From assembly GCA_030622135.1 (NCBI GenBank), contig JAUXGL010000002.1, positions 24 through 64,023 of the forward strand: a stretch of 64,000 nt of DNA, read 5' to 3'. Below the pieces are notes generated by a model, which made no database searches, was not told the origin of the DNA, and was given only the letters and a program-made list of their open reading frames with translations. Below, one piece after another: positions 13,754 to 39,861 of this stretch; within the stretch, counting starts at the first letter, position 1, and each line of letters begins with the position of its first letter. The stretch is from Deltaproteobacteria bacterium (GTDB taxonomy: Bacteria > Myxococcota > B64-G9). The position numbers were made by a program, and so were the translations under genes.

Positions 13754-13897
13754 ACGGGGGACTTTCACCCCCCGCCCCCCCCGCTCATCCCGGCACGCGC
13801 TTGGCTCCCCTCCGCCTTGAAAAACATTTTGCCGGATCGGTTGATTTGTGCAACATTGGGGCCAACAGACGCAGTGCCAGCCAACCACAGGAGAGAC

Positions 13898-14140
13898 ATG
13901 CAGGGTAAAACCGTGTCGGAGCTGATTGGCGACGTTTTGTCCAGTTATCTTGGACCGAACACCGCCAAGACCGCCGTGAAGACCTTTTCTAAAAAGGAGT
14001 TGGGCCTATCACCGGAAAAACTGACCGCCACGAATGTGCCTAAGCTCATGGACGGCATGCGACCCATGTTACGGACGCTTCTGGGTGAAGACGTGACCGA
14101 AGTCCTGGTTGCGATTATTCAGCGCGAGGTGGGGCAATGA
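13898..14140 (+). CDS. Conserved 80-aa soluble protein, copy 1 of duplicated module
   Basis: MQGKTVSELIGDVLSSYLGPNTAK… is 100% identical at the protein level to copy 2, with only synonymous DNA differences. It overlaps the downstream membrane gene (ATGA). Confidence 0.65.
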   Translation: MQGKTVSELIGDVLSSYLGPNTAKTAVKTFSKKELGLSPEKLTATNVPKLMDGMRPMLRTLLGEDVTEVLVAIIQREVGQ

Positions 14141-14955
14141 AACTGCGTCTGTTGCTGGTGTTTCCGGTTCTGCTGACAATTGGGTACTTGCTGCTGGAGC
14201 TTTTTTTCGGAAAGGACCTATGGTTTGCATCTTCTGTAAAATATTTCATCACTTTCGGGGATGCGCTGGCTTGTCTGGGGTTTACTGCGGCGGCCCTTAG
14301 ATTCAAAGCCGGCGAGCATCTGCGCCGGGCGTGGTTGTTCATGGCCCTGTGTATGTTCACGTTCGTTTGCCTCCGATTCGTCGATGTATTTACGTTTGAT
14401 TCTGTATTTGGCTTGAGCGAGGACGTAAAGAATGCAATCCGAGGCGGCGTCAGCGTTTTGGCCAACATCTTCTGGGTTGTTGGCTTGTGGAAGTTGGCCA
14501 GAGTCATGCATATGACCGGCCTGGGTTTTGGTGTCTCTAAATGGGACCAGCGTCTGGTGCTTGGCCTCGGGATCCTGTTGGGGGTTACCTTTGGCGGCTC
14601 GTCGGTTGTAACCGGTGTGATCGCTGTTATGGACGGCAATCTTTTTGCTTTGAACTGGTTGGCGGCCGGGCTGGCGGATGTCATGGTCCTTTGCTTGATC
14701 GCACCTTTGTTTTTGACTGCTCTGGCCATGCGGGGTGGTTTGTTGGTTTGGCCCTGGGGGTTGCTGGTCGCCTGTTTGCTCGGGTGGCTCTTTGTCGACG
14801 CCTTTCAATCATTGGGCCAGATAGTCGATCTCGACCCTCTAGTCCAAAGGTGTACCATGATCACCTCTCGGACTTGGGCCTGTGCGTTTGGTTTCTCGGC
14901 CGGCATGGCTCAACGAATGATTTTGGGTAGACGCTTCACCGATAAAATCAAATGA
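14137..14955 (+). CDS. Polytopic membrane protein (about 8 TM), copy 1 of duplicated module
   Basis: A 272-aa hydrophobic ORF, roughly 70-75% identical to the paralog at 15251..16069. Confidence 0.65.
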   Translation: MKLRLLLVFPVLLTIGYLLLELFFGKDLWFASSVKYFITFGDALACLGFTAAALRFKAGEHLRRAWLFMALCMFTFVCLRFVDVFTFDSVFGLSEDVKNAIRGGVSVLANIFWVVGLWKLARVMHMTGLGFGVSKWDQRLVLGLGILLGVTFGGSSVVTGVIAVMDGNLFALNWLAAGLADVMVLCLIAPLFLTALAMRGGLLVWPWGLLVACLLGWLFVDAFQSLGQIVDLDPLVQRCTMITSRTWACAFGFSAGMAQRMILGRRFTDKIK

Positions 14956-15011
14956 TACTTTAGGTTTTGCACATAACGGCAGAGAAAGTGCAAGCTATCC
15001 ACTGGAGAGAC

Positions 15012-15254
15012 ATGCAAGGTAAAACCGTGTCGGAGCTGATTGGCGACGTTTTGTCCAGCTATCTTGGGCCGAACACCGCCAAGACCGCGGTGAAGACCTT
15101 TTCTAAAAAGGAGTTGGGCCTATCACCGGAAAAACTGACCGCCACGAATGTGCCTAAGCTCATGGACGGCATGCGACCCATGTTACGGACGCTCCTGGGT
15201 GAAGACGTGACCGAAGTCCTGGTTGCGATTATTCAGCGCGAGGTAGGACAATGA
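15012..15254 (+). CDS. Conserved 80-aa soluble protein, copy 2
   Basis: Its protein sequence is identical to copy 1. Confidence 0.65.
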   Translation: MQGKTVSELIGDVLSSYLGPNTAKTAVKTFSKKELGLSPEKLTATNVPKLMDGMRPMLRTLLGEDVTEVLVAIIQREVGQ

Positions 15255-16069
15255 AACTGTGTCTGTTGCTGGTGTTTTCCGTTCTGTTGACAATTGGGTA
15301 CTTGTTGATGGAGCTTTTTTTCGGAAAGGACCCGTGGTTTGCATTTTTTTCAGGATACTTCACCACTGTCGGTGATGCGCTGGCTTGTCTGGGGTATGCC
15401 GTGGCGGCCTTTAAATTCAAAGCCGGCGAGCATCTGCGCCGGGCGTGGCTTTTCTTGGCCCTGACTTTCTTCTTGTTCGTTTGCCTCCGATTCTTAGATC
15501 GATTTCTATTTGAATTGTTATTTGGCTTGACCGCGGGCGAAATCGATGTAGCCCTGGGTAGCTCCTGCGTCTTGGCCAACATCTTCTTGGCTATCGGCTT
15601 TTGGAAGTTGGCCAGAGTCATGCATATGACCGGCCTGGGCTTTGGTGTCTCTAAACGCAAACAGCGTCTGGTGCTCGCCGTCGGGATCCTGTTGGGGGTT
15701 ACCTTTGGCGGCTCGTCGGTTGTAACCGGTGTGATCGATGTTGTGTTCGGCGATTTTTATTCTTTGAACTGGGTTGCCTCCGGGCTGGCGGATGCCTTTT
15801 GCCTTTGTTTGATCGCACCTTTGTTTTTGACTGCTCTGGCCATGCGGGGTGGTTTGCTGGCTTGGCCCTGGGGACTGTTAACCGTAAGTGTGCTCGGTTG
15901 GCTCCTGGTCGATGCCTCTCAAGCATATGCTCTGGTAGTCGATCTCGACCCTATAACCCTGAGGTGTGTCAAAATCACGGCTCGGACCATGGCCTGTGCG
16001 TTTGGTTTCTCGGCCGGCATGGCTCAACGACTGGTTTTGGGTAAACGATTCACCGATAAAATCAAATGA
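15251..16069 (+). CDS. Polytopic membrane protein, copy 2
   Basis: A paralog of 14137..14955 with the same length, the same start-overlap architecture and the same C-terminal RFTDKIK. Confidence 0.65.
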   Translation: MKLCLLLVFSVLLTIGYLLMELFFGKDPWFAFFSGYFTTVGDALACLGYAVAAFKFKAGEHLRRAWLFLALTFFLFVCLRFLDRFLFELLFGLTAGEIDVALGSSCVLANIFLAIGFWKLARVMHMTGLGFGVSKRKQRLVLAVGILLGVTFGGSSVVTGVIDVVFGDFYSLNWVASGLADAFCLCLIAPLFLTALAMRGGLLAWPWGLLTVSVLGWLLVDASQAYALVVDLDPITLRCVKITARTMACAFGFSAGMAQRLVLGKRFTDKIK

Positions 16070-16217
16070 TACTTTAGGTTTTGCATGCACGGAGCGTCGG
16101 ACGGTTCTTGGCCGTCCTCATTGCGTTGTGGCTGGCTGCGCGGGCCCTTAGCCGGGTCGCTGACGGCTTGTTTGTCGGTTCCAGACGCGCTAGGTTCCAC
16201 CTGCGTTTTTTGGAGGC

Positions 16218-16775
16218 TTGACGATGCAAAAGGTTGAAGTCTGGTTGGTTCGGCACGGGCAGACCGATCACAACGCCCAGGGTCGGCTGAGTGGTTGGAC
16301 CGATGCGGCCTTGACCGAATTGGGACGCGATCAAGCCCGCTGGCTTAGAAAGCACATCGAAGCGGAGTCATTCGATAGCGTCTGGTCTTCCGACTTGGGT
16401 CGAGCCAGGGACACGGCCCAATTGGCCTGGGGTTCTTCGGTAGCTACCGATCGTCGTCTGCGGGAGATTCATTTCGGCGATCTGGAGGGGGAGACTTTCC
16501 AGGGCCTGGATAAAAAAAACCAGGACGCCCTGTTGACCTTCAGCGGCTTTAGTGCTCCGGGTGGTGAAAGCGTCGAACAGTTGGAAGAAAGAGTAACGGA
16601 GTTTATGGATTCTCTGGCGCCGGGCCGGCATCTCCTCTTCACCCACGGCGGCGTTATCCGCTGCGTGATGCATCGGTTGCTCAACACCCAGTGTTTCTTA
16701 CCCAACGGCTCCCTGGTGGCGGTCGACTGGATCCCGAGAAAGCTGATCTTCGTTCGTGAGAACGAATTAAGGTAA
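16218..16775 (+). CDS. Histidine phosphatase family protein (phosphoglycerate mutase / alpha-ribazole phosphatase-like)
   Basis: The RHGQTDHN catalytic motif (VWLVRHGQTDHNAQGRLSGWTD) is present. Confidence 0.8.
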   Translation: MTMQKVEVWLVRHGQTDHNAQGRLSGWTDAALTELGRDQARWLRKHIEAESFDSVWSSDLGRARDTAQLAWGSSVATDRRLREIHFGDLEGETFQGLDKKNQDALLTFSGFSAPGGESVEQLEERVTEFMDSLAPGRHLLFTHGGVIRCVMHRLLNTQCFLPNGSLVAVDWIPRKLIFVRENELR

Positions 16776-16860
16776 AACAGTGACGGGGCCGATTGGTGGT
16801 ATCCGTTCAGGCTGTCTGGTTATCTTGGGCCGAACATCGCCAACCCCGTAGCCGATCCGA

Positions 16861-17430
16861 TCAGGGTTTCTTCAGCACGGCCAGGTAGTTGCGAAACTCC
16901 GCCTTCAGCGCGGTGTACTCTCGGTGATCCACCTGGAGCTCCGAGGCGATCTGACGGATCTCGTTGTCCTCCACCGAGGATATGGACAAGTCGGCGGCGG
17001 AGACGGCGAACAGGCAGCGGAGCAGGCCCAGCTTTTGCTCGCGCGTGGCCAGCTGGCCGAACTCCCGGGTAACCAAGAAGTTCTCGGTGCCGCCGAAAAG
17101 CTTTGCGTGGGTCTTGGCCATCTGCACCACCAGGATGGCCAGCTCCGCGTCGAGACCTCCCTGCTCCAACACGATGCGCTCCATGGCCCGGGTCTCTTCC
17201 TCGCTGATGTTCAAGTCGGCATGGGCGACACGAGACAAGAGATACGCGAACGAGGCGATGTACTTGGCCCGCTCGGGTTCCATCCGGTCGAGCTTTTGTA
17301 CTATCTGACGGACAGATTCCGTATCCGCGGACGGTTCTTCCTCTTTCTTCTTCTTGGAAAGGCCCAGAAAATCGAGTATGGACATGTCTCCCTCCGGCGG
17401 CAGTATCGCGGACATAGATGTGATTGACAA
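16861..17430 (-). CDS. TerB-like (tellurite-resistance TerB family) protein
   Basis: It is an all-helical protein with paired acidic motifs typical of TerB/DUF533-like domains. The true start may be the internal Met of MSILDFLGL. Confidence 0.5.
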   Translation of the reverse strand: MSITSMSAILPPEGDMSILDFLGLSKKKKEEEPSADTESVRQIVQKLDRMEPERAKYIASFAYLLSRVAHADLNISEEETRAMERIVLEQGGLDAELAILVVQMAKTHAKLFGGTENFLVTREFGQLATREQKLGLLRCLFAVSAADLSISSVEDNEIRQIASELQVDHREYTALKAEFRNYLAVLKKP

Positions 17431-17455
17431 GCCCGTTCCTTCCTCAATATAAGGG
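17350..17455. repeat. Direct repeat copy A (about 95 bp, spans the 5' end and upstream region of the TerB gene)
   Basis: It aligns at about 85% identity with 20012..20115 (…aagcccagaaaatcgagtatggacatgtctcc…gatgtgattgacaagccc…). Confidence 0.85.
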
Positions 17456-17647
17456 CGTTGTCAAGTATTTTGACCTGTTCGTTGACTTGTTCTAGGCAGC
17501 AGACTCCAAAAGCTGACTCCAAAAGCGTGGGAAATGGCGAACAGGCGCTGGCCGAACTCAGAAGAGCTGACGAGATACTCAAAACCAGCAAATGATACCT
17601 AAACAACTTGACAACGTCCCATTTCCGTACTTTCCGTCCCTTCGGTC

Positions 17648-18484
17648 GTGACCGTGACTGGGAAACCGGTGAAACCTGCTGTGCACACTTCCGATCACTC
17701 CACACACCCTGAAACCTGTGCATACTGCGGAGCCGTCCTGGATGAGAATTACTACTTCTGTCTTTCCTGTGCGACACCGTATAAAAGCGTTGAGTCTGTT
17801 CTGCCGCCTGCGCGCCCGGCGCCGCCGACCACGGGTTTCTTGATCGCCAAGAAAGCGCCCCATGTGATGCCCCTTTTCTGGACGTATGTGGCGGTCGTCG
17901 TGGGAACTGCACTGTTTAGCTTCTTCGTATTCGGAGAGCGACAACTGGAGCTTGTGCTGATTTTTCAAACGCTTGCGGTTTTTGTCACCACTTGTGTTTT
18001 TGCCAAGATACACTGGTCGTCACTGATGGTGCAGTTTAGGCGTTTCGGCTTTCTCAAAAAAGAAGCTGTGCTGGGGTTGATGGCTCTGGTGCCGTTGTTG
18101 GCCGTCAATTATTATATATACCACAGTTGGCTAGTGGATGGGTGGGGCGTCAAGGAGACGTTGCCAATTCTCCGCCTGCGCGACTCTGGCCTGGGAGAGC
18201 CTGCTTTGATCCTGCTTTTCTGTGTCTTCCCTGCTGTCACCGAGGAGATCGCATTCCGTGGGCTCGTCCAGCACTGGCTACAGATCGCCGTATCTCCGTT
18301 CTACGCGACGGCGCTGGCGTCGCTCCTCTTCACTGCACTGCATTTTTCAGTTTTCAGCGCGCCATACATCTTCGTCTTGGGAATGGTACTCGGCTGGGTG
18401 AAGCGGGAAACCAACAGCCTCTATCCATCCATGGCGATGCATTTCCTTCATAATCTGGTCGTTATTGATTTTTTTTCACACTGA
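17648..18484 (+). CDS. CPBP-family intramembrane metalloprotease (CAAX protease/Abi family) with N-terminal zinc-ribbon
   Basis: The CPBP motifs EEIAFRG…, FTALHF and HFLHN are present. The N-terminus has CAYCGAVLDENYYFCLSCATPY (CxxC…CxxC), and the start codon is GTG. Confidence 0.75.
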   Translation: MTVTGKPVKPAVHTSDHSTHPETCAYCGAVLDENYYFCLSCATPYKSVESVLPPARPAPPTTGFLIAKKAPHVMPLFWTYVAVVVGTALFSFFVFGERQLELVLIFQTLAVFVTTCVFAKIHWSSLMVQFRRFGFLKKEAVLGLMALVPLLAVNYYIYHSWLVDGWGVKETLPILRLRDSGLGEPALILLFCVFPAVTEEIAFRGLVQHWLQIAVSPFYATALASLLFTALHFSVFSAPYIFVLGMVLGWVKRETNSLYPSMAMHFLHNLVVIDFFSH

Positions 18485-18529
18485 TGATAATTCAATTTCC
18501 GTTATACATATGGAAGGAGGTGATTCATC

Positions 18530-19096
18530 ATGGACTTCGGAGTGTATCTGATTGCTAGTGTAATCTGCGGAATCATCGCAGCCGTAATCGCTTCTGGCAA
18601 GGGGAGAAACGGCTTGGGTTGGTTTTTTGGAGGATTCTTCCTGGGAATCGTCGGCATCGTCATCGTGGCCGTCATTCCCAACCTGAAGCAGGAAAAGGCC
18701 CGGTGGGAGGAGGATGACATCGAGCAGCACCGCCTGCGCGAGCGAATGAAACAGGAAAAAATTAAGAACGAGTCGTTTCGCGGTCACGCGGCCGGACGTC
18801 TCGATGCCCACGACGGTGCTCTCGGCATGGATACCCGCTCGATTCAAGGCCCACCTCCAACACCCGGTATGCTGACAGAGGGGCTTCAGAGATCGGGGCC
18901 TCCGCCAAACCCGTCAGAGGCCATCTGGTATTACGACCTCAACGGAGAAACCCGTGGGCCCGTATCGGAGACAGATATCAAGGCGATGCTTCGGTCCAGG
19001 CAAATCGGGGGCACTACGATACTGTGGTCCGAGAGTATGAGTGAGTGGACGCCTGCAAAACAGATTGAGACGTTTCGCTCCGTGGCAGGTTCATGA
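18530..19096 (+). CDS. Membrane protein (2 TM) with C-terminal GYF-like/DUF4339-type domain
   Basis: It has N-terminal TM helices and a C-terminal AIWYYDLNGETRGPVSETDIKAMLRSRQI…WSESMSEWTPAKQIETF, which resembles the GYF-like fold. Confidence 0.5.
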   Translation: MDFGVYLIASVICGIIAAVIASGKGRNGLGWFFGGFFLGIVGIVIVAVIPNLKQEKARWEEDDIEQHRLRERMKQEKIKNESFRGHAAGRLDAHDGALGMDTRSIQGPPPTPGMLTEGLQRSGPPPNPSEAIWYYDLNGETRGPVSETDIKAMLRSRQIGGTTILWSESMSEWTPAKQIETFRSVAGS

Positions 19097-19995
19097 ACCA
19101 AAAAACCGAGGGCACCGCAGCTCTCGACGGCATCCTCGATGGCAAGATCCCAGACCGGGACGAAGTCGAGGATCGCCTCCGGGAATGGATCAGCTTTGCG
19201 GCATCAATAAATCTGCAGTTCAATCTCGAAATAGACGGCAACTCGTTCAATCTCCTCGCCGATAACAAACCGTTCCCGGCAAAGGACATAGAACCGGACT
19301 TGACCAGTACGGTTTCGAGTGCCTTAAGCGAGCTTCTCAGGATCTTCAACAAGGAAGAGAGGCGGAGGGTTTTCTCGACAATTCGGAGCATTGAATATAG
19401 GAAGGGCGTGGAGACTCAAACCCTTTTTACAGTCGGGCCCGACGGGGAGATCCACACCCGATCGAGAACCGCCGAAGCCCAAACTACCGCTGCGCCTCGT
19501 CCGTATACCCGCAAGGAGAAAATCCGCACCGGAGTCATCGTTGGCGCTTCCGCCCTGGTGGCTTTCGCAATCTCCGCACTCTTCGTAGATTACGGTTCTC
19601 TATTCAACCGCACCTTCGAGCGAGTCAAAACCTTTCGTGCCGCCGGGCTGGAAGTCGAAAACAAAATTTTCCACGCTTACTTTACCGTCGAGAAGAAAAC
19701 CGCAGTAGGCGGGGGGAAAACGCTGCTGCTCGTATTGAAGCGAGGCGAGGCGTTCCCGAAAGCTGACTCTGACTTCGAGCAACTGATCACCGACTCACCG
19801 GGCTCCATTTCCGCTCGTGTGACCATCGAGGCGCTCGCGCGCGGCTACGTACGGTGTGAGTTTTACGACCAGCAGGGCAAATTCCTGAGTTTCTACATGC
19901 AAAGGATCTCTGGTCTCAGGCAAAATCAGACCATTGAGCTAAACATACCGCTTCCCAGCCAAAAACGCCCTGAGCGCTTGATTATCACTTACTAG
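19093..19995 (+). CDS. Hypothetical protein with one internal TM helix
   Basis: It is translationally coupled to the previous gene (ATGA). I recognise no family. Confidence 0.5.
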   Translation: MNQKTEGTAALDGILDGKIPDRDEVEDRLREWISFAASINLQFNLEIDGNSFNLLADNKPFPAKDIEPDLTSTVSSALSELLRIFNKEERRRVFSTIRSIEYRKGVETQTLFTVGPDGEIHTRSRTAEAQTTAAPRPYTRKEKIRTGVIVGASALVAFAISALFVDYGSLFNRTFERVKTFRAAGLEVENKIFHAYFTVEKKTAVGGGKTLLLVLKRGEAFPKADSDFEQLITDSPGSISARVTIEALARGYVRCEFYDQQGKFLSFYMQRISGLRQNQTIELNIPLPSQKRPERLIITY

Positions 19996-20011
19996 AAACC
20001 ATCTCTCTTTT

Positions 20012-20115
20012 TTCTTCTTCAAGCCCAGAAAATCGAGTATGGACATGTCTCCCCCCGGCGACAGTATCCATAACGCAGATGTGATTGACAAGCCCACCAC
20101 TTCCTTCATATAAGG
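20012..20115. repeat. Direct repeat copy B; contains a relic of the TerB 5' end (…GGDMSILDFLGLKKKKE…) on the minus strand
   Basis: It aligns with copy A. The minus-strand translation reproduces the TerB N-terminal peptide and then diverges. Confidence 0.85.
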
Positions 20116-20122
20116 ATGTGAC

Positions 20123-21442
20123 ATGACTTTGAAACTGGGAATCCGCCGGGAGGACAAGAGCGTCTGGGAGCGCCGGGTACCGCTCACTCCGGATCACGTG
20201 CGCCGGCTGGTCAAAGACGGCGTCCCCGTCGTCGTGCAGCCCTCCAAAACCCGTGTATTTCCCGATGAGGCCTACCGGGAGGCCGGGGCGGAGATCGAAG
20301 AAGATCTCTCCTCCTGCCCGGTGGTGCTGGCGGTCAAGGAGATCCCCTCCAGTCTCTTCGTGTCCGATCACGTCTACGTGTGCTTCGCTCACGTGATCAA
20401 GGGCCAGCCCTACAACATGCCCATGCTGCGCGAACTGCTGGACTCCGGCGGTACTCTGATCGACTACGAGAAGGTGACCGACGGGCAGGGGCGGCGGCTG
20501 ATCTTCTTCGGGCGTCATGCCGGTCTGGCCGGAATGATGGACTCCCTGTGGGCGTTGGGGCGGAGGCTCGAGACCGAGGGGTTCGACACCCCCTTCTCCG
20601 CGCTGCGACCGACTCACTGCTACCAGAACCTGGACGAGATCAAGCAAGCCGTTCGGGAGGTCGGCTTGAAAATTGCCGATGCGGGGCTCCCCCCGGCGCT
20701 CACCCCGATGGTTTTCGGGTTCGCCGGTTATGGCAACGTGTCCCTGGGCGCCCAGGAGATCTTCGATTTACTCCCCCACCAGGAAGTGGCCCCCGAGCAG
20801 TTGCTCAAGCTCCCCAAGACCAATAACCGGCAGGAGCTGGTCAAGGTGGTTTTCAAGGAAAAGCACATGGTGCAGCGGGCGGATCCGAAGGCGCCCTTCG
20901 ATCTCCAGGAGTACTACGACCACCCCGAACGCTATAAGCCCGACTTCGACCAGTACGTGCCCTTGCTGACCGTGATGATCAACTGCATCTACTGGGCGCC
21001 TCAGTACCCCCGGTTGATCACCAAGACTCGGCTGAGAGAGCTATACGCAGGGCAGTCCCCGCCCCGGCTCCGGGTGATCGGAGACGTCAGCTGCGACGTG
21101 GAGGGGGCGGTGGAGTGCACGCTCAAGTGCACCCAGCCGGGAGAGCCGGTGTTCGTGTACCGGGTGCAAGACGACGCCGCCGTCATGGGCGTGAAGGGTG
21201 AAGGGCCGGTGGTGCTCGCCGTGGACAACCTTCCCTGCGAGCTGCCGATGGAGTCATCGCAGGACTTCGGTGACGCGCTCATGCCCTTCATACCCGCCCT
21301 CGTGGAGGTCGACTTTACTCAGCCGTTCGAAAAGCTGGATCTGCCCGTCCCCATCAAGAGGGCGACGATCGCCCACCGGGGGGTCCTGACGCCCGATTAC
21401 GGTTACCTGTCGAGTCATATCGACAAAGCCCAAGGAGATTGA
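20123..21442 (+). CDS. Lysine-ketoglutarate reductase / saccharopine dehydrogenase (L-lysine-forming), AlaDH/PNT-fold
   Basis: The LKR-type N-terminus GIRREDKSVWERRVPLTP is present, followed by a Rossmann fold GFAGYGNVSLGA. Confidence 0.75.
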   Translation: MTLKLGIRREDKSVWERRVPLTPDHVRRLVKDGVPVVVQPSKTRVFPDEAYREAGAEIEEDLSSCPVVLAVKEIPSSLFVSDHVYVCFAHVIKGQPYNMPMLRELLDSGGTLIDYEKVTDGQGRRLIFFGRHAGLAGMMDSLWALGRRLETEGFDTPFSALRPTHCYQNLDEIKQAVREVGLKIADAGLPPALTPMVFGFAGYGNVSLGAQEIFDLLPHQEVAPEQLLKLPKTNNRQELVKVVFKEKHMVQRADPKAPFDLQEYYDHPERYKPDFDQYVPLLTVMINCIYWAPQYPRLITKTRLRELYAGQSPPRLRVIGDVSCDVEGAVECTLKCTQPGEPVFVYRVQDDAAVMGVKGEGPVVLAVDNLPCELPMESSQDFGDALMPFIPALVEVDFTQPFEKLDLPVPIKRATIAHRGVLTPDYGYLSSHIDKAQGD

Positions 21443-22761
21443 AGATGAAAAAAGTACTGGTTCTGGGAGCCGGGCTGGTTTCCCGCCCCCTGGTTCGCTA
21501 CCTGATGGACTCCGAGTTCGAGGTGACCGTAGCCAGCCGCACGGTTGCCAAGGCCGAAAAGCTGATTGAGGGCCACTCCCTCGGGCGGGCGATTTCCCTA
21601 AACGTGGACGACAATCAGGCCATGCGCCAGCTGGTACAAAACTGCGACGTGGTCGTCAGCCTGCTTCCGGCCACCCGCCACATCGAGGTGGCCCGGGCGT
21701 GCCTGGACATGGGCAAGCACATGGCCACCACCTCGTACGTCAGCCCGCAGATGCGCGCCCTGGATACGGAGGCCCAGGAAAAGGGCCTGTTGCTGCTCAA
21801 CGAAATGGGCGTGGATCCGGGCATCGACCACATGTCGGCCATGCAGGTGGTCCACACCGAGGAGAAGGCCGGGGGCACCCTGGTGGGCTTCTCCTCCTGG
21901 TGCGGCGGGCTGCCGGCCCCCGAAGCAAACGACAATCCCTTCGGCTACAAGTTCTCCTGGAGCCCCAAGGGGGTCCTGATCGCATCGAGAAACTCGGCCA
22001 AGTACCGAAAAGACAAAAGCGTGGTGGATATCCCCGCCGACCGCCTCTTCTCCGAGCCCGCCCGGGTGGAGATCCCCGGGGTGGGCACCTTCGAGGGATA
22101 CCCCAACCGCGACTCGGTGTCCTACATGGACACCTACGGTTTCTCCGATCGGGTCAAGGACATGTTTCGGGGGACGCTTCGCAACCAGGGATACTGCCGG
22201 TTGCTCGCCCAGATCGTCCGGTTGGGCCTGCTCGATGACGATTCTCAGCAGGACTTCTCCGGGGTGACCTATCTGGGACTGATGGAGAAGATGTTCTCGA
22301 AGCCCGTGGAGGAAACCATCCCCGCCAAACTGGGAGTAAGCGCAAAAGACTCTCCCCTCGAGGCGATGAAGTTCATCGGCTTGCTTGGCGACCGGCCCGT
22401 CGAGGTCGCGAGTGGATCCTGGATGGACCTGCTCGCCGACCGGATGCAGAAGGCGCTCTGTTACCTGCCGGGTGAGCGCGACATGTTGTTGATGCGTCAC
22501 GACATCACCTTCGAATACGAAGGCGGAAAGCGCAGAGAGTGCATCACCGCCATCATGGTGGACTTCGGCATCCCCAACGGGGACAGCTCCATGGCCCGGA
22601 CGGTTTCCCTGCCCGCCGCCATCGGAACGCGCATGCTGCTGGAGGGAAAGATCCAGCTGCGGGGAGTGCGGATTCCGGTGGTAGCGGATATATACGATCC
22701 GGTGCTTGAGGAGTTGGAGAAGATGGGGATCAGGTTCAAGGAAACCAGGGAGAAGGCGTAG
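21439..22761 (+). CDS. Saccharopine dehydrogenase (NADP+, L-glutamate-forming)-like
   Basis: It has the N-terminal Rossmann motif KKVLVLGAGLVSRPLVRYL and a Sacchrp_dh C-terminal region. It is translationally coupled to the LKR gene. Confidence 0.75.
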   Translation: MKMKKVLVLGAGLVSRPLVRYLMDSEFEVTVASRTVAKAEKLIEGHSLGRAISLNVDDNQAMRQLVQNCDVVVSLLPATRHIEVARACLDMGKHMATTSYVSPQMRALDTEAQEKGLLLLNEMGVDPGIDHMSAMQVVHTEEKAGGTLVGFSSWCGGLPAPEANDNPFGYKFSWSPKGVLIASRNSAKYRKDKSVVDIPADRLFSEPARVEIPGVGTFEGYPNRDSVSYMDTYGFSDRVKDMFRGTLRNQGYCRLLAQIVRLGLLDDDSQQDFSGVTYLGLMEKMFSKPVEETIPAKLGVSAKDSPLEAMKFIGLLGDRPVEVASGSWMDLLADRMQKALCYLPGERDMLLMRHDITFEYEGGKRRECITAIMVDFGIPNGDSSMARTVSLPAAIGTRMLLEGKIQLRGVRIPVVADIYDPVLEELEKMGIRFKETREKA

Positions 22762-26541: not shown

Positions 26542-29500
26542 TCAGTATCCCTGGCCCTGGTTGGCCTTATTCCCGCGGAACTTGGGAAAGGAGCCCGAGA
26601 AGTCGCCAAGATATGCGTGGCCCTGGATGGCCCAGAGGTAACCGCCGTTGGACCCTCCCCATGTCTCCAGCAGGTAGACCACCCCGTTAGGCCCGATGAC
26701 CGGAGAAGAGACGATGGAGCCCGAGCTGCTCACCGAGACTCCGATGCCCCACTCCATCATCCCCGCCAGGCTGTAGCAGTACAGGTACTTGCCGCTGTGG
26801 AACAGGAAGGAGCCGTCGTGCCCCACGGTGATGCTGGAGTTGGTCTCGGGAGCCATCCAGGCATTGTCCAGGTCTCCGCCTTTGGAGATGTAGATGTATA
26901 TGTTGCCCACCCACGAGGTCCCGGTGGCATGGGAGGTCATATAGACGATGTCTCCGCCGCCGGCCTCGGGCACCGTGGTCGGAGAGCAACCTTCTACCAG
27001 GGTAGAGGTCACATTGTTCCCCTCGGCAACCGAGACCGGGAAGTCTGCAATCGGGTCTCCGGTTTTGCCATCGAGGCCGTGGAGCAGTCCGTCGTCGCAG
27101 CCGATGTAGACGGTGCCGTCCACGCCGATGGCCGGCGAGCTGTTGCAGGCAGCGTCGGTGGTAACCACCCACGCCGGCGGATCGCTGTCTTCAACGTCGA
27201 TGGCGACAATAAAGCCACCCAACGCCGACTCCATGCCGAAGACCACGTACTCCTCGCCGGCCGGCCCGATGTCACCCAGGGCCGGGGAGCTGTCCATTGC
27301 ATTGCTGTGCGGGTAGTTCCACTTCTCCGAGCCGTCCGGGTTGACCGCGTAGAAGCCGTCGCCGCGGGTGCCGAAGTAAATGGTTCCGTCGATGCCGACC
27401 GCCGGCGAAGAATGAATCTCGTAACCCGCTGCCGGCACTGTCCAGCCGGCCTCGGCCAGTCCGGTGGAAGCTACCAGGGCGAGAAGGCCGCTGGTACTCC
27501 CAACGTAGAGGGTCTGCTCGTCGTACGAGAGCGCAATCGACGTGGTCAGATCCAATCCAAACCTGGCGTATACCCGGGCGCCTGCCGAGTTGGTTTTTCG
27601 GAGGTATCCGTTATCGCCGACGGTGTAGACGTTTCCGCTCGTGTCGATGGCCGGTGTACTGGAACCGCCGTAAACGAACGATTTCCAGACTACGTCACCG
27701 TAGCCTTCCCATCCCGGTGTGCAGATGGTCCGCTTCCAGAAGTCTTGGGAGTTGTCATCGGTGTCGTTGTGCCAGACCCAGCGGCTGAGGCAGGGGGTGT
27801 AGGGTGGGTCGTAGGGGGGTGTGTTGTAGTTGGCTGCCGCGGCAGGCTGGCCTTCCCCGACGAACGTCCCGCCGCCGGAGAAGTCGCCGTACCCCAGCGC
27901 GTCGGTGACGATCACCTCGGCATACACTACTTTCAGATTGTCGTGATCGTTCTGCAGCAGATTGCCGCTCCCATGGGTCATGTCCCGCTGGGCGGCCGTT
28001 TCCGCATCGGCGATGGAGGTGGCGATGACGAAGTGCCCGTTGGAGGGCAGCGTGTACCCGTCCAGCGGAATGGTCATGTAGATCTGCCCGTTGGCTCCGT
28101 TGACCCCCTCCACCGAGAAGTTATCCAGGCTGGCGCCGCCGGGGCCGTACAGCTCGATGAACTCGCGCTCGCCGTCGATGCCTTCGTCGTCGTAGAGGAT
28201 TTCATTGATCAGAATCGTCATGGGCGTGGTGGTGATGCAGTTGCCGCGGTAGCACATCTCGGTCCCCACCTGGCAATCCATCGGGGTGCCCCACTCCAGG
28301 CAGGGATCCCCGTCGAAATACCCGCACTTGTGCCAGGCGTTCTCTCCCATGATGCACTCGACCTCGTTGATGCCCGGACACTCATCGGTGCAGATCACCA
28401 CGCAGTCTCCGTCCTGGCACTCCTCGTTGTAGGCACAGTAGGTGATGTCCGACAAGTCCAGGCAGTCGTCTTCATCGTACTCCCCGCAAACCCGGAAACC
28501 GTTGTCGTGGTCGTCGCAGATCGGCAACCCCACTTGGGCCTGGGTACATTCGTCGATGCAATCCACCAGGCACTCACCGATCGAGCAAGTTGTCCCCGCG
28601 GGACAGGTCACGTGTCCGCCCCACTCCAGGCAGGGGTCGGCATCGTAGTCGCCGCAGATGTCGTACCCGTCGCCCGAGCACTGGTGGGAGTCCACCACGG
28701 TGCAATCGTCGTCGCAGACGATTTCACACTGGGCTGTGTCCTCATTGCAGGCCTCCCCGTCACCGCAAGGGGTCACGCCGGACCACTCCAGGCAGGAGTC
28801 CGGATCGAACTGGCCACACTCGTGCCAGCCGTTCTCGAAGCACTCCCGCTCTTCCAGGGTGTCGCATTCGTTGCTGCAGCTAATCACGCACTCGGCGGTG
28901 ACCGGGTCGCAGATATGGCCCACGCCGCAATCGGTGACGGTCGACCATTCCAGGCAATCGTCGGCATCGTAATTGCCGCACTCGTGCCAGCCGCTGAGGT
29001 CACCGATGCACTCCTTCACACCGGATTCATCGCATTCGTTTTGGCACTCCTCTGTAGTACACACGCCGTTGTCGCATCTCTCGCCATTGGCGACGTCGCA
29101 TTCCTCGATGTCGCTCCACTCCCGGCAGGGGTCGGCATCGTAGTTGCCGCAGACCTTGAAGTGGGTGTTGTCTGTGCAGACCCGCTCGTTCTCGTCGCAA
29201 TCGTCCTGGCAGTCCTCCACGCACTCTCCGCCGTCGCACTTGAACCCGGTTTCGCAGGCCACGTGGCCGCCCCACTCCAGGCAGGGATCGCTGTCAAAGT
29301 CGCCGCAGGTGTCGTAGCCGTCGGTCGAGCAGCGCCGGTCTCCCTCTGTGGGGCACTCGTCCGAGCAGGAGATCTCGCACCGGCCGGTTTGCTCGTTGCA
29401 GGTTTCGAAGGAAGCGCAGTCGGTGATACCCGACCAGTCCAGGCAGGGGTCGGCGTCGTAGTAACCGCACACCCGGTAGCCGTTGCCTTCGCAGATGCGC

Positions 29501-30084
29501 TGCTCCTTTGCGCAGTCATCCTGGCACTCGTCCGAGCAAGTTGCCGTCTGGGTGTCGCAGGTCTGGCCGGCCGGGCAGTCGGTTTGCTGGCCCCAGTCCA
29601 GGCAGTCGTCCTGATTGTAGTCCCCGCAGATCTCGAAGCCCTCCTTGAGGGGGTCGGGGATGCAACGGCGGTCGCCGGCCTGCTTGCATTCGTCGGTGCA
29701 GTCGGTCACGCAGTTTCCGTTTTCGCAAACCTGGCCGGTGTCGCAGGACTGGGCGGTCATCCATTCCTTGCAGGTGTCGTTGTTCGGATCGCCACACACC
29801 TGGAACATATCGGCGGAACCCGAGAAGCAGCGCCGCTCCCCCTCGGTGCACTCGTCCGAGCAGGGCACGCAGATCCCCTTGGAGCAAAACTGGCCGGTCG
29901 CACAAGCGTTGTCGCAGCTTCCGCAATGGGACCGGTTTATGCTCATGTCCACGCATTCGTTTACGCATTTCTTCTGCCCCGGGGGACACTCGGATGCGGA
30001 GTCGCCACCGCAACCGGTAACGAGGGTAATGGCCAACAGGGGTATCAAACAACACAGCATCCACAGTTTCCACAGCTTCTTCAT
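26542..30084 (-). CDS. Large secreted lipoprotein: Myxococcus-type Cys-rich N-terminal module, about 11 x 52-aa six-Cys repeats, lamin-tail-like domain (LTD), PQQ-like beta-propeller
   Basis: A signal peptide with lipobox LVTGC is present. The repeats are C-x-DEC…R-C…CG-YD-D-CL-W…C. The LTD-like segment is ILINEILYD…EFIELYG. The C-terminus has repeated beta-propeller blades (…DGTIYFGT…, …DGTVYIGC…). Confidence 0.75.
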   Translation of the reverse strand: MKKLWKLWMLCCLIPLLAITLVTGCGGDSASECPPGQKKCVNECVDMSINRSHCGSCDNACATGQFCSKGICVPCSDECTEGERRCFSGSADMFQVCGDPNNDTCKEWMTAQSCDTGQVCENGNCVTDCTDECKQAGDRRCIPDPLKEGFEICGDYNQDDCLDWGQQTDCPAGQTCDTQTATCSDECQDDCAKEQRICEGNGYRVCGYYDADPCLDWSGITDCASFETCNEQTGRCEISCSDECPTEGDRRCSTDGYDTCGDFDSDPCLEWGGHVACETGFKCDGGECVEDCQDDCDENERVCTDNTHFKVCGNYDADPCREWSDIEECDVANGERCDNGVCTTEECQNECDESGVKECIGDLSGWHECGNYDADDCLEWSTVTDCGVGHICDPVTAECVISCSNECDTLEERECFENGWHECGQFDPDSCLEWSGVTPCGDGEACNEDTAQCEIVCDDDCTVVDSHQCSGDGYDICGDYDADPCLEWGGHVTCPAGTTCSIGECLVDCIDECTQAQVGLPICDDHDNGFRVCGEYDEDDCLDLSDITYCAYNEECQDGDCVVICTDECPGINEVECIMGENAWHKCGYFDGDPCLEWGTPMDCQVGTEMCYRGNCITTTPMTILINEILYDDEGIDGEREFIELYGPGGASLDNFSVEGVNGANGQIYMTIPLDGYTLPSNGHFVIATSIADAETAAQRDMTHGSGNLLQNDHDNLKVVYAEVIVTDALGYGDFSGGGTFVGEGQPAAAANYNTPPYDPPYTPCLSRWVWHNDTDDNSQDFWKRTICTPGWEGYGDVVWKSFVYGGSSTPAIDTSGNVYTVGDNGYLRKTNSAGARVYARFGLDLTTSIALSYDEQTLYVGSTSGLLALVASTGLAEAGWTVPAAGYEIHSSPAVGIDGTIYFGTRGDGFYAVNPDGSEKWNYPHSNAMDSSPALGDIGPAGEEYVVFGMESALGGFIVAIDVEDSDPPAWVVTTDAACNSSPAIGVDGTVYIGCDDGLLHGLDGKTGDPIADFPVSVAEGNNVTSTLVEGCSPTTVPEAGGGDIVYMTSHATGTSWVGNIYIYISKGGDLDNAWMAPETNSSITVGHDGSFLFHSGKYLYCYSLAGMMEWGIGVSVSSSGSIVSSPVIGPNGVVYLLETWGGSNGGYLWAIQGHAYLGDFSGSFPKFRGNKANQGQGY

Positions 30085-36194: not shown

Positions 36195-37220
36195 ATGCGC
36201 GTCGCGGTATACCACAACAACCGGGACATACGCATCGAGGAGCGGCCCATCCCCGAGATCGGGCCGCGGGAGCTCCTGGTGCGGGTGGTAGCCTCCGGCA
36301 TCTGCGGAAGCGACGTGATGGAGTGGTACCGCGTCAAGAAGGCCCCGCTGGTGCTGGGCCACGAGATCGCCGGCAAGGTCGAAAAGATTGGCGCGGAAGT
36401 CCAGGGATACCGCATCGGCGACCGCGTCTTCGTCAGCCATCACGTACCCTGCAACACCTGCCGCTACTGCCGGGCCGGCCAGCACACCGTCTGCCCGACC
36501 CTGCATACCACCAACTTCGATCCCGGCGGCTTCGCCGAGTTCCTGCGGGTCCCGCCCATCAACGTGGACCGGGGGACCTTCATTCTTCCCGACAGCGTGA
36601 CCTTCGACGCGGGGACCTTTGTCGAACCGCTGGCCTGCGTGTTACGGGGCCAGCGAATCGCCGGGGTCAAACCGGAAAAGACCGTCGCCGTCCTGGGAAG
36701 CGGCATCTCCGGGATCATGCACATCGCCGCGGCGCGCGCGGCGGGCGTCCGCCGGATTTTCGCCACCGACGTCAGCGACTACCGGCTTTCAAAGGCCGAG
36801 GTCTTCGGCGCCACCGCGGCCTTTCACGCGCGCGCGGACATACCCCAAAAAATTCGCCGGGCCAACGATGGACGGGCGGCCGATGTGGTCATCGTCTGCG
36901 CGGGGGCGATCGAGGTCCTCGAACAGGCGCTTTTGTGCGTGGACCGGGGCGGCACGATCCTGTTCTTCGCCGCGACCCCCCCGGGCGAAGAGCTGAAGGT
37001 GCCCGTCAACGAACTCTGGCGCAACGGCATCACTCTGGTTCCCACCTATGCCGGCGCTCCCGCGGACTGCGCCGCGGCGCTGGATCTCCTCGCCAAAAAG
37101 ACCGTGCCCGTAGCCGACATGATTACCCACCGCCTCCCCCTCGACGAGATCGAGGCAGGCTTCCGCCTCGTCTGGCGGGGCCGGGAATCCCTCAAGGTCG
37201 TCATCCAGCCCCACCAGTAA
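36195..37220 (+). CDS. Zn-dependent alcohol dehydrogenase (MDR family; threonine/sorbitol dehydrogenase-like)
   Basis: It has GICGSDVMEW, GHEIAG and a Rossmann fold GSGISG. Confidence 0.8.
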   Translation: MRVAVYHNNRDIRIEERPIPEIGPRELLVRVVASGICGSDVMEWYRVKKAPLVLGHEIAGKVEKIGAEVQGYRIGDRVFVSHHVPCNTCRYCRAGQHTVCPTLHTTNFDPGGFAEFLRVPPINVDRGTFILPDSVTFDAGTFVEPLACVLRGQRIAGVKPEKTVAVLGSGISGIMHIAAARAAGVRRIFATDVSDYRLSKAEVFGATAAFHARADIPQKIRRANDGRAADVVIVCAGAIEVLEQALLCVDRGGTILFFAATPPGEELKVPVNELWRNGITLVPTYAGAPADCAAALDLLAKKTVPVADMITHRLPLDEIEAGFRLVWRGRESLKVVIQPHQ

Positions 37221-37262
37221 GAAGACTGAGACAGAATCCGCCACCTCACGTCCGCCGCTTTT

Positions 37263-37338
37263 GTGCGAAACGGTCCAGCATCTCGTCCAGCCGAACCAGG
37301 CGGTTTCGCGACGCGCCTTCCTCCTGTTTCTCGTTGAG
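37263..37338 (-). pseudogene. Relic fragment homologous to the C-terminal region of aldehyde:ferredoxin oxidoreductase
   Basis: The minus-strand translation RFLNEKQEEGASRNRLVRLDEMLD closely matches the AOR segment RFLNEKLEEGASRNRLVKLDEMLD encoded at 39937..40014. It lacks the rest of the gene. Confidence 0.7.
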
Positions 37339-37531
37339 AAACCGCGCGCGATTCTTCCGCCTGCTCACCGACCACTCCGACCTGGAACCCGGATTCGTGG
37401 TCGTTGACCAAACCTTTGGAACGTTTCCGGAAAGCTACCATCCTTCATAATGACGCGAGAAATGTCGTGCGCGTTGTCTTTCGGGCGGGCCCGCACCCGC
37501 ACGCGAAGCTTGGGCGATATTGGCGTTTTGC

Positions 37532-38653
37532 TCATGGCCGGTCCTTTCTTTTCGTCCTCTTTCCTCGCGAAGAACCTTGTTTCCGTAGCGGCGCTACTTT
37601 GCCAAGGATTTCCCGATAGTACTGTGTGTCACGGAGTCTCCGGGCTATAGACGCTGTAGCGAAAAGATCCTCGGGCCTGAAGTGCCCAGCGCGGAAATCT
37701 TCCACGAATCTGTGCTCACGCTCCGTGTAGTTGAACACATGACGATCAAAGAACTTCCTGACCGTCCACTTCATTTCTTCGACCGATGGTACGGGGAGAT
37801 CACGTGGGACAACACTAAGCAGTTCAGACTTGACGTCAGCCTCGGTGTAGGAGCCGATCGCGTTCCCCCGGAAGTACTCGAACTTCCCGATCCGGGTCAT
37901 GCCAAACAGGATCACGAGATCGCGGAATAACTTGAGATCGAACTTGATCTCTCCATCTAGAACCTCTCGGGACAGCAAGTAGATGTCGAATAGATGGCGG
38001 ATCTTCCGTTTGGTCAGTAGTCCAATGTGGTCGGGAAAATCCAGGCGTTCCTTTGCATCGACCATGGCTATCGCCTTGCTGGCGTATAGCTCCTCTTCCT
38101 TGAGCGTGACGACCTTGAACGTAGGGGCGACCTCATCTTGCACGATCGGCCATTCTCGCGCTACCGTACCCAGTACGGAGTCCCCATAGCGGTAGGAGAT
38201 GTCGAGTTCGATGCTGTCCCTGCGTCTGTACATAGATCGATAGGTCAACTCGTACTGCACGAATCGATCGGCTTTCACGGATGTGATCTTGAATCCCATC
38301 CCCAGATTCCGAGCGATTGCCTCCAGTATATCCTTGTCCCTGTTCTTCCGTGTGCTCACCTCCCGCTTGCCCTTCTTCCCCAGATTCCGGTTAGTGACGA
38401 AGTCCAAGTCAAGGTCGGTCGAGAACCTGTACATGTCACGGTACAGGAAGACAATCGCCGAGCCTCCCATCAAAGCGAAATCCCTGCCTATCTCAGAGAC
38501 CGTAATTGCACGCAGCACGCGTGTTAGCCAAAGCACCTTCTCCCCCGTCGGGAACTCCACTTGGTGCTTTCGCGCCCAGGCCTCGATGAGATCCTGACCT
38601 ATCGAACCCGGCTCGGCCGATGCTGATGCCATTTTCTTACTTGGCTTAGTCAT
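37532..38653 (-). CDS. AbiEii/AbiGii-type nucleotidyltransferase toxin (type IV TA / abortive infection)
   Basis: The NTase motif GGSAI…DLDLDF and a DUF1814-like C-terminal region are present. The local GC is lower. Confidence 0.75.
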   Translation of the reverse strand: MTKPSKKMASASAEPGSIGQDLIEAWARKHQVEFPTGEKVLWLTRVLRAITVSEIGRDFALMGGSAIVFLYRDMYRFSTDLDLDFVTNRNLGKKGKREVSTRKNRDKDILEAIARNLGMGFKITSVKADRFVQYELTYRSMYRRRDSIELDISYRYGDSVLGTVAREWPIVQDEVAPTFKVVTLKEEELYASKAIAMVDAKERLDFPDHIGLLTKRKIRHLFDIYLLSREVLDGEIKFDLKLFRDLVILFGMTRIGKFEYFRGNAIGSYTEADVKSELLSVVPRDLPVPSVEEMKWTVRKFFDRHVFNYTEREHRFVEDFRAGHFRPEDLFATASIARRLRDTQYYREILGKVAPLRKQGSSRGKRTKRKDRP

Positions 38654-39536
38654 CGAACAGTCCTTCCGGCACGTGCAGATTCCATTGCCGATTCAGTGTT
38701 CCACCCTCCCCGCGCGCGAATTTCGCAGGTGTTTTCGGCAGGTAGGGCCGCAGAGAATCGATTTCGTTTTCAGCAACTTTCCATTTCTCAGCATATCGCT
38801 GCACGACCAACCCAACCCTTGAAACAAGCGAGGGCGTTCGGTATTGCTTCACATACTCAATCATGCGGCTACCGCGGACTCCTTCGGCTCGATTCAGAGC
38901 ATGGGCAACGTTCTCCCATCCCTGTGCGTACTTCGGGCGATGGATAGCGTCAATCAGCGTCCGCTCCAGATCCGTGATGCGAACAGAACCCCGGCCGTGA
39001 TGCCTGGTGACAATACCTGTTTCTTTCGGTAACGGTGTTTTGACAAAACGAATATTGAATTCTCCCATAGGCCGCTGCTTCCGCTTGGATTTCGAGACCA
39101 CATAGTACTCCGTTAACCTGCCGTAGCGCGATAGCCCGTACAGAAGAAGAGCTGTACCGTAACCGAAGACAACTTCCTCACCATAAACCGCCTGGACGGC
39201 CTCAATAGGATCGGTAATGAATGTGCCATTTTTCCCGTCCGCCACAACATACAGCCCTCGTGGTCCGTTCTTGAGCCGCTGCAATACGCCCTTTTGTTGG
39301 AGACGGCGCAGACCGTAGTCCGGCGATACATCGGTGTATTGTTTTGCTAAACGAGCCACCTCCGTGGAAGAAATGATGTCCCTTTTCCGCAGGGCTCTCA
39401 CTAGTGCCTTCCAGGCGGTTTTGCTGCGGCCGTTCCTGCTTCTTTTCTTCACGGCATGCCTTTCCGCCTCGCGCAATTGTCCGGGTTGAGCAACTTTTGC
39501 ACAACGACATGTGCAAAAGTCGCAATTGGCGGACAC
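38646..39536 (-). CDS. AbiEi-family antitoxin / transcriptional regulator
   Basis: It is upstream of and overlaps the NTase gene, with a wHTH-like N-terminus and an AbiEi-like C-terminus. Confidence 0.65.
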   Translation of the reverse strand: MSANCDFCTCRCAKVAQPGQLREAERHAVKKRSRNGRSKTAWKALVRALRKRDIISSTEVARLAKQYTDVSPDYGLRRLQQKGVLQRLKNGPRGLYVVADGKNGTFITDPIEAVQAVYGEEVVFGYGTALLLYGLSRYGRLTEYYVVSKSKRKQRPMGEFNIRFVKTPLPKETGIVTRHHGRGSVRITDLERTLIDAIHRPKYAQGWENVAHALNRAEGVRGSRMIEYVKQYRTPSLVSRVGLVVQRYAEKWKVAENEIDSLRPYLPKTPAKFARGEGGTLNRQWNLHVPEGLFDD

Positions 39537-39861
39537 GCATCCCTGTGTTCTCGCGGTTCAGGAACAGACTGACGCATCACCTCGGTGGCCTGCTCCATCA
39601 GCTTGCTCGGTTCGAATTTCGTTTTCATCGTCAAACCTTCTCCAGGAGATCAAGAGCGTCCTGCGGGCGGAGCCTTTACCCTTGCTCCCTGACTGAGCAG
39701 CTACCGTCGAAGAGAAGAACAATGTCAGTACCTCTGTCTGTAAGATTCTCTAGGAAATTTCAGAATGATTGGATTGTAAGCAGAAAGTGCCTTTCATTCA
39801 AGAGAGAAAGTAGGACGCCATCTGATTATATAAACGTGTACCCACCTTCGGGTCTTACCGA

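Follow-up and report, generated by a model that had tools for sequence, protein, structure and literature searches.

A stretch of 64,000 nucleotides (nt) from a Deltaproteobacteria bacterium (GTDB lineage Bacteria; Myxococcota; B64-G9), taken from contig JAUXGL010000002.1 of assembly GCA_030622135.1 (positions 24 to 64,023 of the forward strand) and referred to below as the window, carries a block of three genes that lies between a TerB-domain gene and an LKR-like gene and is bracketed by a direct repeat. The block is probably a horizontally acquired three-gene operon that was inserted in the 5′ untranslated region (UTR) of the LKR-like gene, with duplication of approximately 110 nt of the host's two-way promoter. 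A sequence-only reading of the window had suggested an insertion accompanied by duplication of the TerB 5′ end, and comparison with relatives agrees with this: they are without the block, and the repeats lie exactly at the edges of the indel. All positions given are those of the window unless a contig is named.

Absence of the block from relatives

Relatives were found via the LKR protein in genome and metagenome collections and via TerB in a large protein collection, followed by look-up of the respective contigs. At the protein level they are 56–93% identical in TerB and 60–85% identical in LKR. The TerB start directly faces the LKR start in L002, L003, L004, L086, L087, L168, L169, L170 and L171, with a gap between the two genes of 87 nt in L086, L087, L168, L169 and L170, 77 nt in L171 and approximately 93–112 nt in the distant L002–L004; L172 has the same upstream sequence as far as its contig end. 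The three block genes are absent from the orthologous site in at least ten relatives (TerB 56–88% identical), in which TerB directly adjoins LKR, the arrangement that the sequence-only reading had suggested looking for. The nearest relative, L166/L167 (TerB 93% identical), is represented by tiny contigs that end inside the promoter region and are uninformative on the block. The deviant end of L167, which has low coverage, matches nothing. Because the relatives have TerB and LKR back to back without the block, the block is an insertion.

The repeat pairs 17348–17454 with 20009–20115 in an ungapped repeat search of the window (107 nt, 81% identity), and 17341–17454 with 20005–20115 when the window is compared with itself by blastn (114 nt, 82.5% identity, one small gap, E 1e-25); in a gapped alignment the left copy (A) and the right copy (B) are 86% identical. 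The earlier claim of a direct repeat bracketing the three-gene block is therefore borne out. In the self-comparison the 114-nt pair is the only sequence duplicated here, and the three bracketed genes are single-copy. Only two other dispersed repeats of such a kind occur in the window, besides a repetitive gene at approximately 28.3–29.9 kb and a tandem gene pair, so a chance match is of no concern. Precise alignment of the copies revealed a stretch of 31 nt that is identical in A and B (17362–17392 = 20023–20053) and comprises TerB codons 1–8, with the ATG, and part of the ribosome-binding site. Short inverted repeats had also been looked for at the junctions, where no inverted pair connects the two ends.

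An ancestral block that the relatives lost by recombination between the repeats is very improbable. Direct repeats with a 31-nt identical core could allow precise deletion, but independent loss would be required in at least ten relatives over a wide range of divergence, and the GC content at third codon positions (GC3) of the block is foreign, so that this reading is disfavoured by both parsimony and composition. Almost no probability remains for the similarity being a chance match, a paralogous TerB remnant unrelated to the bracketed genes or an assembly artefact, in favour of which the sole point is that the source is a metagenome assembly. The arrangement recurs, together with an identical TerB protein, on four contigs that were assembled independently and come from two or more samples; one of these (L176) is 99.97% identical to the window across 7 kb. 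The arrangement is therefore not an assembly artefact, nor would an assembler be misled by copies that are merely 82% identical. The E value within the window, the match to the indel edges and the recurrence on four contigs together refute this set of explanations. The paralogous remnant, an objection that the sequence-only reading had raised against itself, is ruled out, as the similarity spans the non-coding promoter region and halts exactly where the indel does.

Content of the repeat

Copy A (17341–17454) contains approximately the first 14 TerB codons with their ribosome-binding site and the back-to-back promoter region, and extends 1 nt beyond the −10 box of the plus strand, while copy B (20005–20115), directly upstream of LKR, consists of a relic of the TerB 5′ end and the complete promoter region. 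A consensus scan identified a TerB promoter-like site on the minus strand at 17402–17430 (TTGTCA, 17 nt, GATACT), both hexamers of which are kept in 10/10 aligned sequences. On the plus strand, a predicted promoter in copy A at 17424–17453 (TTGACA 17424–17429, 18 nt, TATAAG 17448–17453) faces the inserted operon, and its counterpart in copy B at 20085–20114 (TTGACA 20085–20090, 18 nt, TATAAG 20109–20114) ends 8 nt before the LKR ATG. The plus-strand TTGACA of copy A overlaps the minus-strand −35 hexamer of TerB. The −35 block (GATGTGATTGACAAGCC) is invariant in the ten aligned sequences; the 18-nt block around the −35 elements (GATGTGATTGACAAGCCC) is unchanged in both copies, with 17 of its 18 positions invariant across the ten.

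The similarity between the copies ends 1 nt past TATAAG in both. Each retains the −35 hexamers, both −10 hexamers, the core of the ribosome-binding site and the ATG, and the spacers between these elements differ, which fits two working promoter modules. The repeat, as predicted from these elements, is a complete back-to-back TerB/LKR promoter, which is likely to be why copy B was kept.

The minus strand of copy B encodes a 35-amino acid (aa) relic open reading frame (ORF) at 19939–20046, antisense to the 3′ end of the gene for a 300-aa protein in the block. The relic retains a promoter-like site (20091..20063), a GGAG-type ribosome-binding site and the ATG (20046..20044), and reads MSILDFLGLKKKKE followed by 21 unrelated residues. 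The earlier statement that the second copy codes for the TerB peptide and then terminates stands for the ATG and the 13–14 TerB codons, but not for the termination, as 21 further, non-TerB codons precede the stop at 19939.

Host genes and the LKR leader

The native TerB-domain gene (16861–17385, minus strand) encodes 174 aa from the ATG at 17385 (the Joint Genome Institute (JGI) call is 184 aa from 17415), is preceded by a GGAG-type ribosome-binding site and belongs to the TerB family (Pfam PF05099, E 2.4e-15); the relic is homologous to the start of this gene. On the other side of the insert, which displaced them from TerB, are the native LKR-like (AlaDh_PNT) and saccharopine dehydrogenase (SDH) genes (20123–22761, plus strand), assigned by Pfam and by synteny in relatives. 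The flanking TerB, LKR and SDH genes have a GC content of 0.60–0.63 and a GC3 of 0.81–0.84 (TerB 0.81).

The LKR-like gene of the window starts 8 nt past a −10-like box and has no ribosome-binding site, in comparison with a leader of approximately 21 nt with a GGAGG ribosome-binding site in most relatives. The LKR 5′ UTR of L171, which has no insert, is equally short (9 nt) and also without a ribosome-binding site (TATAAGGATTCTGGC-ATG; L171 495–650). A short leader thus belongs to the natural variation of this gene, and native sequence follows copy B. A loss of the ribosome-binding site through an 11–13-nt deletion scar at the edge of copy B had been considered and was dropped given the equally short, insert-free L171. 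The LKR mRNA of the window is, from its sequence, probably leaderless or nearly so. The distribution of short leaders (window and L171) and leaders of approximately 21 nt (other relatives) suggests that expression in the LKR-like family possibly switches between leadered and leaderless among its members.

The inserted operon

The inserted DNA of approximately 2.55 kb (17455–20002) comprises a 193-nt leader and three genes on the plus strand and ends 7 nt past the last stop codon. Its GC content is 0.535 and the GC3 of its genes 0.63–0.65, so the lower-GC segment of about 2.55 kb described by the sequence-only reading stands out clearly against its flanks. The three products agree with those proposed earlier (a ZnR-CPBP protease, a GYF/DUF4339-like membrane protein and a 300-aa protein), in that Pfam assigns the first to Rce1-like/CPBP, the second to GYF_2 and the third to no family. 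The first gene (17648–18484) encodes a CPBP (Rce1-like) intramembrane protease (PF02517, E 2.5e-19, 69.8 bits against a Pfam cut-off of 22.4) with a weak N-terminal match to a zinc ribbon; the NCBIfam CPBP models also match it, all beneath their curated cut-offs. The second (18530–19096) encodes a membrane protein with a C-terminal GYF_2 domain (PF14237, E 1.9e-15) and a single further Pfam match that is weak and below threshold.

The third gene (19093–19995) encodes the 300-aa protein of an unnamed family, which is predicted to consist of two alpha/beta domains joined by one transmembrane helix (residues 140–162); the AlphaFold2 model has a predicted local distance difference test (pLDDT) score of 90.5. 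Its 52 homologues are all hypothetical, and those with a name are from Planctomycetota metagenome-assembled genomes. Comparison of the model with PDB folds gave only weak ferredoxin/ACT-like similarities, none with an E value below 1e-3. In L176 (JGI 3300042089), 71 nt corresponding to window positions 19691–19761 are missing inside this gene, leaving ORFs of 200 and 95 aa, which is either a gene-inactivating population variant or an assembly error.

The same three genes, in the same order and with overlapping or near-abutting ORFs, were found among unrelated neighbours on contigs L082 and L083–L085. As judged from this gene order, the block is a conserved, ready-made operon acquired as a unit. 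PADLOC defence models did not match any of the three block proteins, and the insert gave no match to plasmids and phages, nor the 300-aa protein to viral contigs. An Rfam scan of 16700–20300 returned nothing but a sub-threshold wcaG match inside the CPBP gene.

The leader (17455–17647) contains an inverted repeat (17453–17471 / 17601–17619) with 84% complementary arms, in each of which is the TTGACAA/TTGTCAA motif of the host −35 elements. It also has, at 17502–17527, a tandem pair of 13 nt (GACTCCAAAAGC(T/G)). The predicted fold of the leader RNA is not significant (z −1.6), and blastn of the leader and the insert tail against all fetched loci found no homologue.

Origin and divergence of the two copies

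Copies A and B each align over their full length with the single TerB–LKR spacer of the relatives. With L086/L087 as outgroups, six states are shared by A and B only, seven are private to A and seven private to B. Given this alignment and the shared derived states, the repeat is duplicated host target and did not come from a distant donor of the operon. The earlier suggestion that the TerB 5′ end was dragged along or regenerated is thus right in that this end was duplicated at the insertion, and wrong in that both copies are host target and neither was borne by the block.

The divergence between the copies is unevenly distributed. A and B differ at 0/31 positions in the core and at 14/62 in the intergenic part, where the 14 differences cluster in the two promoter spacers. 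The relatives differ among themselves at 3–8/31 core positions, and L086 and L087 at 7/31 in the core and 0/62 in the intergenic part. The core also carries states unique to A and B (e.g. TCGAG and GTCTCCC), and L166, with its 93% identical TerB, differs from it at 6/31 positions. Over the intergenic part every relative is more similar to copy B than to copy A, with 9/62 differences between B and L170 (A 16/62) and 7/45 between B and L166 (A 12/45), and the branch of copy A is approximately three times as long. At four positions copy A has the state of the distant relatives, while copy B shares that of L166/L170.

The orthologous 62-nt spacer (L086 5150–5215, L087 7915–7980) is identical in L086 and L087 and nearly so in four more relatives, although the adjoining TerB synonymous sites of L086 and L087 differ at 7/31 positions. 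The spacer itself, beyond the hexamers, seems from this comparison to be strongly constrained, perhaps as an operator, and seems to have come under weaker constraint in the clade that the window forms with L166 and L170.

Two histories may account for this pattern, between which very few sites are informative. The duplication may have occurred in place, with copy B remaining under the old constraint as the LKR promoter and copy A being remodelled; the lack of core changes on the short branch of B is then unsurprising, as only approximately 1.75 would be expected. The intergenic part of copy A may, instead, have come from a related donor lineage, with a crossover in the core. The latter history is weakened by the expectation that a donor identical in the core should not differ by 23% next door.

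Other inserts and repeats in the window

Two further low-GC inserts in the window carry relics of nearby genes. The AbiEii (37532–38653) and AbiEi (38646–39536) toxin-antitoxin pair, with a GC content of 0.54, is inserted in the 37221–40010 region between the convergent genes for Zn-ADH (36195–37220) and aldehyde:ferredoxin oxidoreductase (AOR; 39862–41619), which are merely 13 nt apart in the relative L174. At the far edge of this insert is a 75-nt, 89%-identical, in-frame relic (37272–37346) of an internal AOR segment (39936–40010). The relic is equidistant from the resident AOR gene and that of the relative L173. A simple long target duplication was rejected as its origin, since the flanks of the relic have no AOR homology.

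The other insert (13800–16860) is a 3.1-kb low-GC block on the far side of TerB, between an ABC-2 permease gene and the TerB stop codon. It contains a tandem duplicate of an 80–95-aa ORF plus a 272-aa membrane protein, followed by a histidine phosphatase gene; the small ORFs of the duplicate are 95% identical in nucleotides and the membrane proteins only 71% identical in amino acids. At its end, an approximately 80-nt relic of the start of the small ORF (16769–16848, similar to 15016–15087) overlaps the phosphatase stop codon. TerB is followed, after 13 nt, by an 811-aa VIT-like gene in five relatives; this gene has been replaced by the insert and is absent from the window.

Three low-GC inserts in the window, including the one beside LKR, therefore each have at one edge a 75–114-nt imperfect copy of a nearby gene fragment, namely the TerB start, internal AOR and the start of the 95-aa ORF. 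The three relic pairs share no motif of 9 nt or longer, and the geometries of the inserts differ. That they are the signature of a single undescribed integration pathway of this lineage, recombinase-independent or trans-acting, which places a copy of approximately 100 nt of the local sequence at the opposite junction, is an improbable proposal. If it were true, cassettes might be re-excisable through their repeats, and a common mechanism would provide for gene acquisition independent of mobile elements.

The remaining repeats of the window include copies with a spacing of approximately 160 nt (28273–29864) inside the long minus-strand ORF 26542–30084, and tandem arrays inside long ORFs with an 18-nt unit at 2664–2787 and a 120-nt unit at 45625–46034.

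Discussion

The arrangement between TerB and LKR would be explained by insertion of the acquired operon, in an ancestor of the lineage, just past the LKR −10 box and before the LKR start. The stretch of approximately 110 nt that adjoins the insertion point on its left, comprising the promoter module, the TerB ribosome-binding site and the first 14 or so TerB codons, would have been duplicated, resulting in the order leftward TerB, copy A, rightward new operon, copy B and rightward LKR–SDH. The ends of the incoming DNA may have been joined to chromosome ends staggered by approximately 110 nt, which were then filled in; alternatively, a copying strand may have switched to the foreign template and re-entered the chromosome approximately 110 nt upstream. 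We infer that duplication and insertion were one event, and that the joining was of an illegitimate, repair- or replication-type kind rather than the work of a dedicated recombinase.

The sequence of the insert points in this direction. As the sequence-only reading had noted, there is no integrase or transposase: the insert's three ORFs gave no Pfam match to recombinases or transposases, and there is no room for another gene. No inverted repeats join the ends of the insert (17455–17500 with 19950–20002), the sole near-end pair lying within the leader, and a scan of the whole window for tRNA and tmRNA genes found none. The right end of the insert joins copy B in the CT-rich stretch of the TerB KKKKEEE codons, in which microhomology of a few bases is indistinguishable from low complexity.

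After the event, copy A would drive TerB leftwards and its plus-strand promoter would point into the operon leader, while copy B would restore to LKR–SDH a promoter of their own. The interval between the operon and LKR showed no site resembling a terminator, so read-through into LKR–SDH is possible. The minus-strand promoter of copy B, with its ribosome-binding site and the 35-codon ORF, could also yield an RNA antisense to the end of the operon. Both promoter copies would be active, as judged from their retained elements, and copy B would have been kept by selection for LKR expression; the conservation of the hexamers in both copies fits such retention.

Several observations weigh against this explanation. 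Known transposases leave target duplications of 2–14 nt, which a duplication of approximately 110 nt far exceeds; to our knowledge it is about ten times longer than any made by a transposase. No documented bacterial precedent was retrieved for a one-step illegitimate integration with such a duplication, and later trimming may have altered the edges seen today. The divergence of the copies is mosaic, so that duplication followed by drift needs copy A to have changed approximately three times as fast, or else gene conversion of the core. Copy B is also nearer than copy A to L166 and L170 in the intergenic part.

The main rival is a two-step route through a related donor, which is possible though rather unlikely, and a decayed element of the integrase type ranks below it. 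In the donor route the block would first have come to sit by a TerB-promoter segment in the donor lineage. Its import may then have involved circularisation of the fragment and one Campbell-type crossover within the 31-nt core; alternatively, homology-facilitated illegitimate recombination may have joined one of its ends within the start of the resident TerB gene. One copy, most likely the intergenic part of A, would then be donor sequence and the other resident. In favour of this route are the identical 31-nt core flanked by diverged sequence, the position of intergenic B nearer to the nearest relatives (7/45 for L166, 9/62 for L170) than to A (14/62) and the four positions at which A and B side with different relatives. 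The other side of TerB also has a lineage-specific low-GC replacement, so this neighbourhood has recombined more than once. Set against this are the states that A and B alone share in the core and that L166 lacks, and the 23% divergence in the 62 nt adjoining an identical core, which a donor should not show. The signal of separate ancestry rests on approximately four sites (roughly p 0.05, an estimate), and at least two events are needed, a primary insertion in the donor and then the transfer. The remnant of a site-specific integrative element is quite improbable. The repeats would be attL and attR with the 31-nt core as the crossover site, a replacement TerB promoter would have come with the element, and the integrase and remaining genes of the element would since have been lost or would act from elsewhere in the genome. 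The topology is as in such elements, with direct repeats that have an identical core and imperfect arms, a gene end as the insertion site, a low GC with deviant GC3 and absence in relatives; the three ORFs of the insert, by contrast, have no Pfam match to an integrase or other recombinase. A single conserved cellular operon and its 193-nt leader take up the 2.55 kb, the same operon occurs elsewhere without such flanks, and the block is carried by all four contigs with identical TerB, with no empty site seen.

The insertion with promoter duplication belongs to a known kind of event, the acquisition of an islet bounded by target-derived direct repeats, and is unusual in its long duplication and the lack of a mobility gene. 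Like integrase-mediated islands and islets, it is a low-GC block that is absent in relatives, has direct repeats of host sequence at a gene end and appears to leave the interrupted functions intact. Unlike those islands, it has no integrase or other mobility gene, its target is the 5′ end of a protein gene with a two-way promoter and not a tRNA gene or a 3′ end, and it consists of a single cellular operon without spare DNA. In the target-site duplications of insertion sequences and transposons, too, the sequence beside the insertion point reappears in direct orientation across the insert, but the duplication here is 107–114 nt instead of 2–14 nt and there are no transposase and no terminal inverted repeats. 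Tandem segmental duplication differs in that the unit repeated here does not include the intervening genes. Homology-facilitated illegitimate recombination during natural transformation reportedly also integrates foreign DNA without mobile-element functions and with junctions at short, low-complexity microhomology; no anchor or donor sequence was identified here. The closest documented process is promoter capture by microhomology rearrangement: microhomology-type duplications and deletions beside a transferred gene readily give promoter capture (Li & Bock 2019, PMC6614815; also PMC11111574). In those cases, as here, a host promoter is placed ahead of a gene that otherwise has none. The unit duplicated there includes the transferred gene (tandem amplification), whereas here it is only the 110-nt promoter module, and the second copy benefits the displaced host gene.

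The contrast between the copies, with a spacer that is frozen in the relatives and remodelled in A and a core that is identical here and variable in the relatives, offers a small window on the divergence of a regulatory module after its duplication. The locus as a whole is a well-resolved natural example of a foreign operon taken into a tightly packed divergent locus, apparently with no loss of expression on either side: through duplication of the entire two-way promoter, one copy is available to the new operon and one to the displaced gene.

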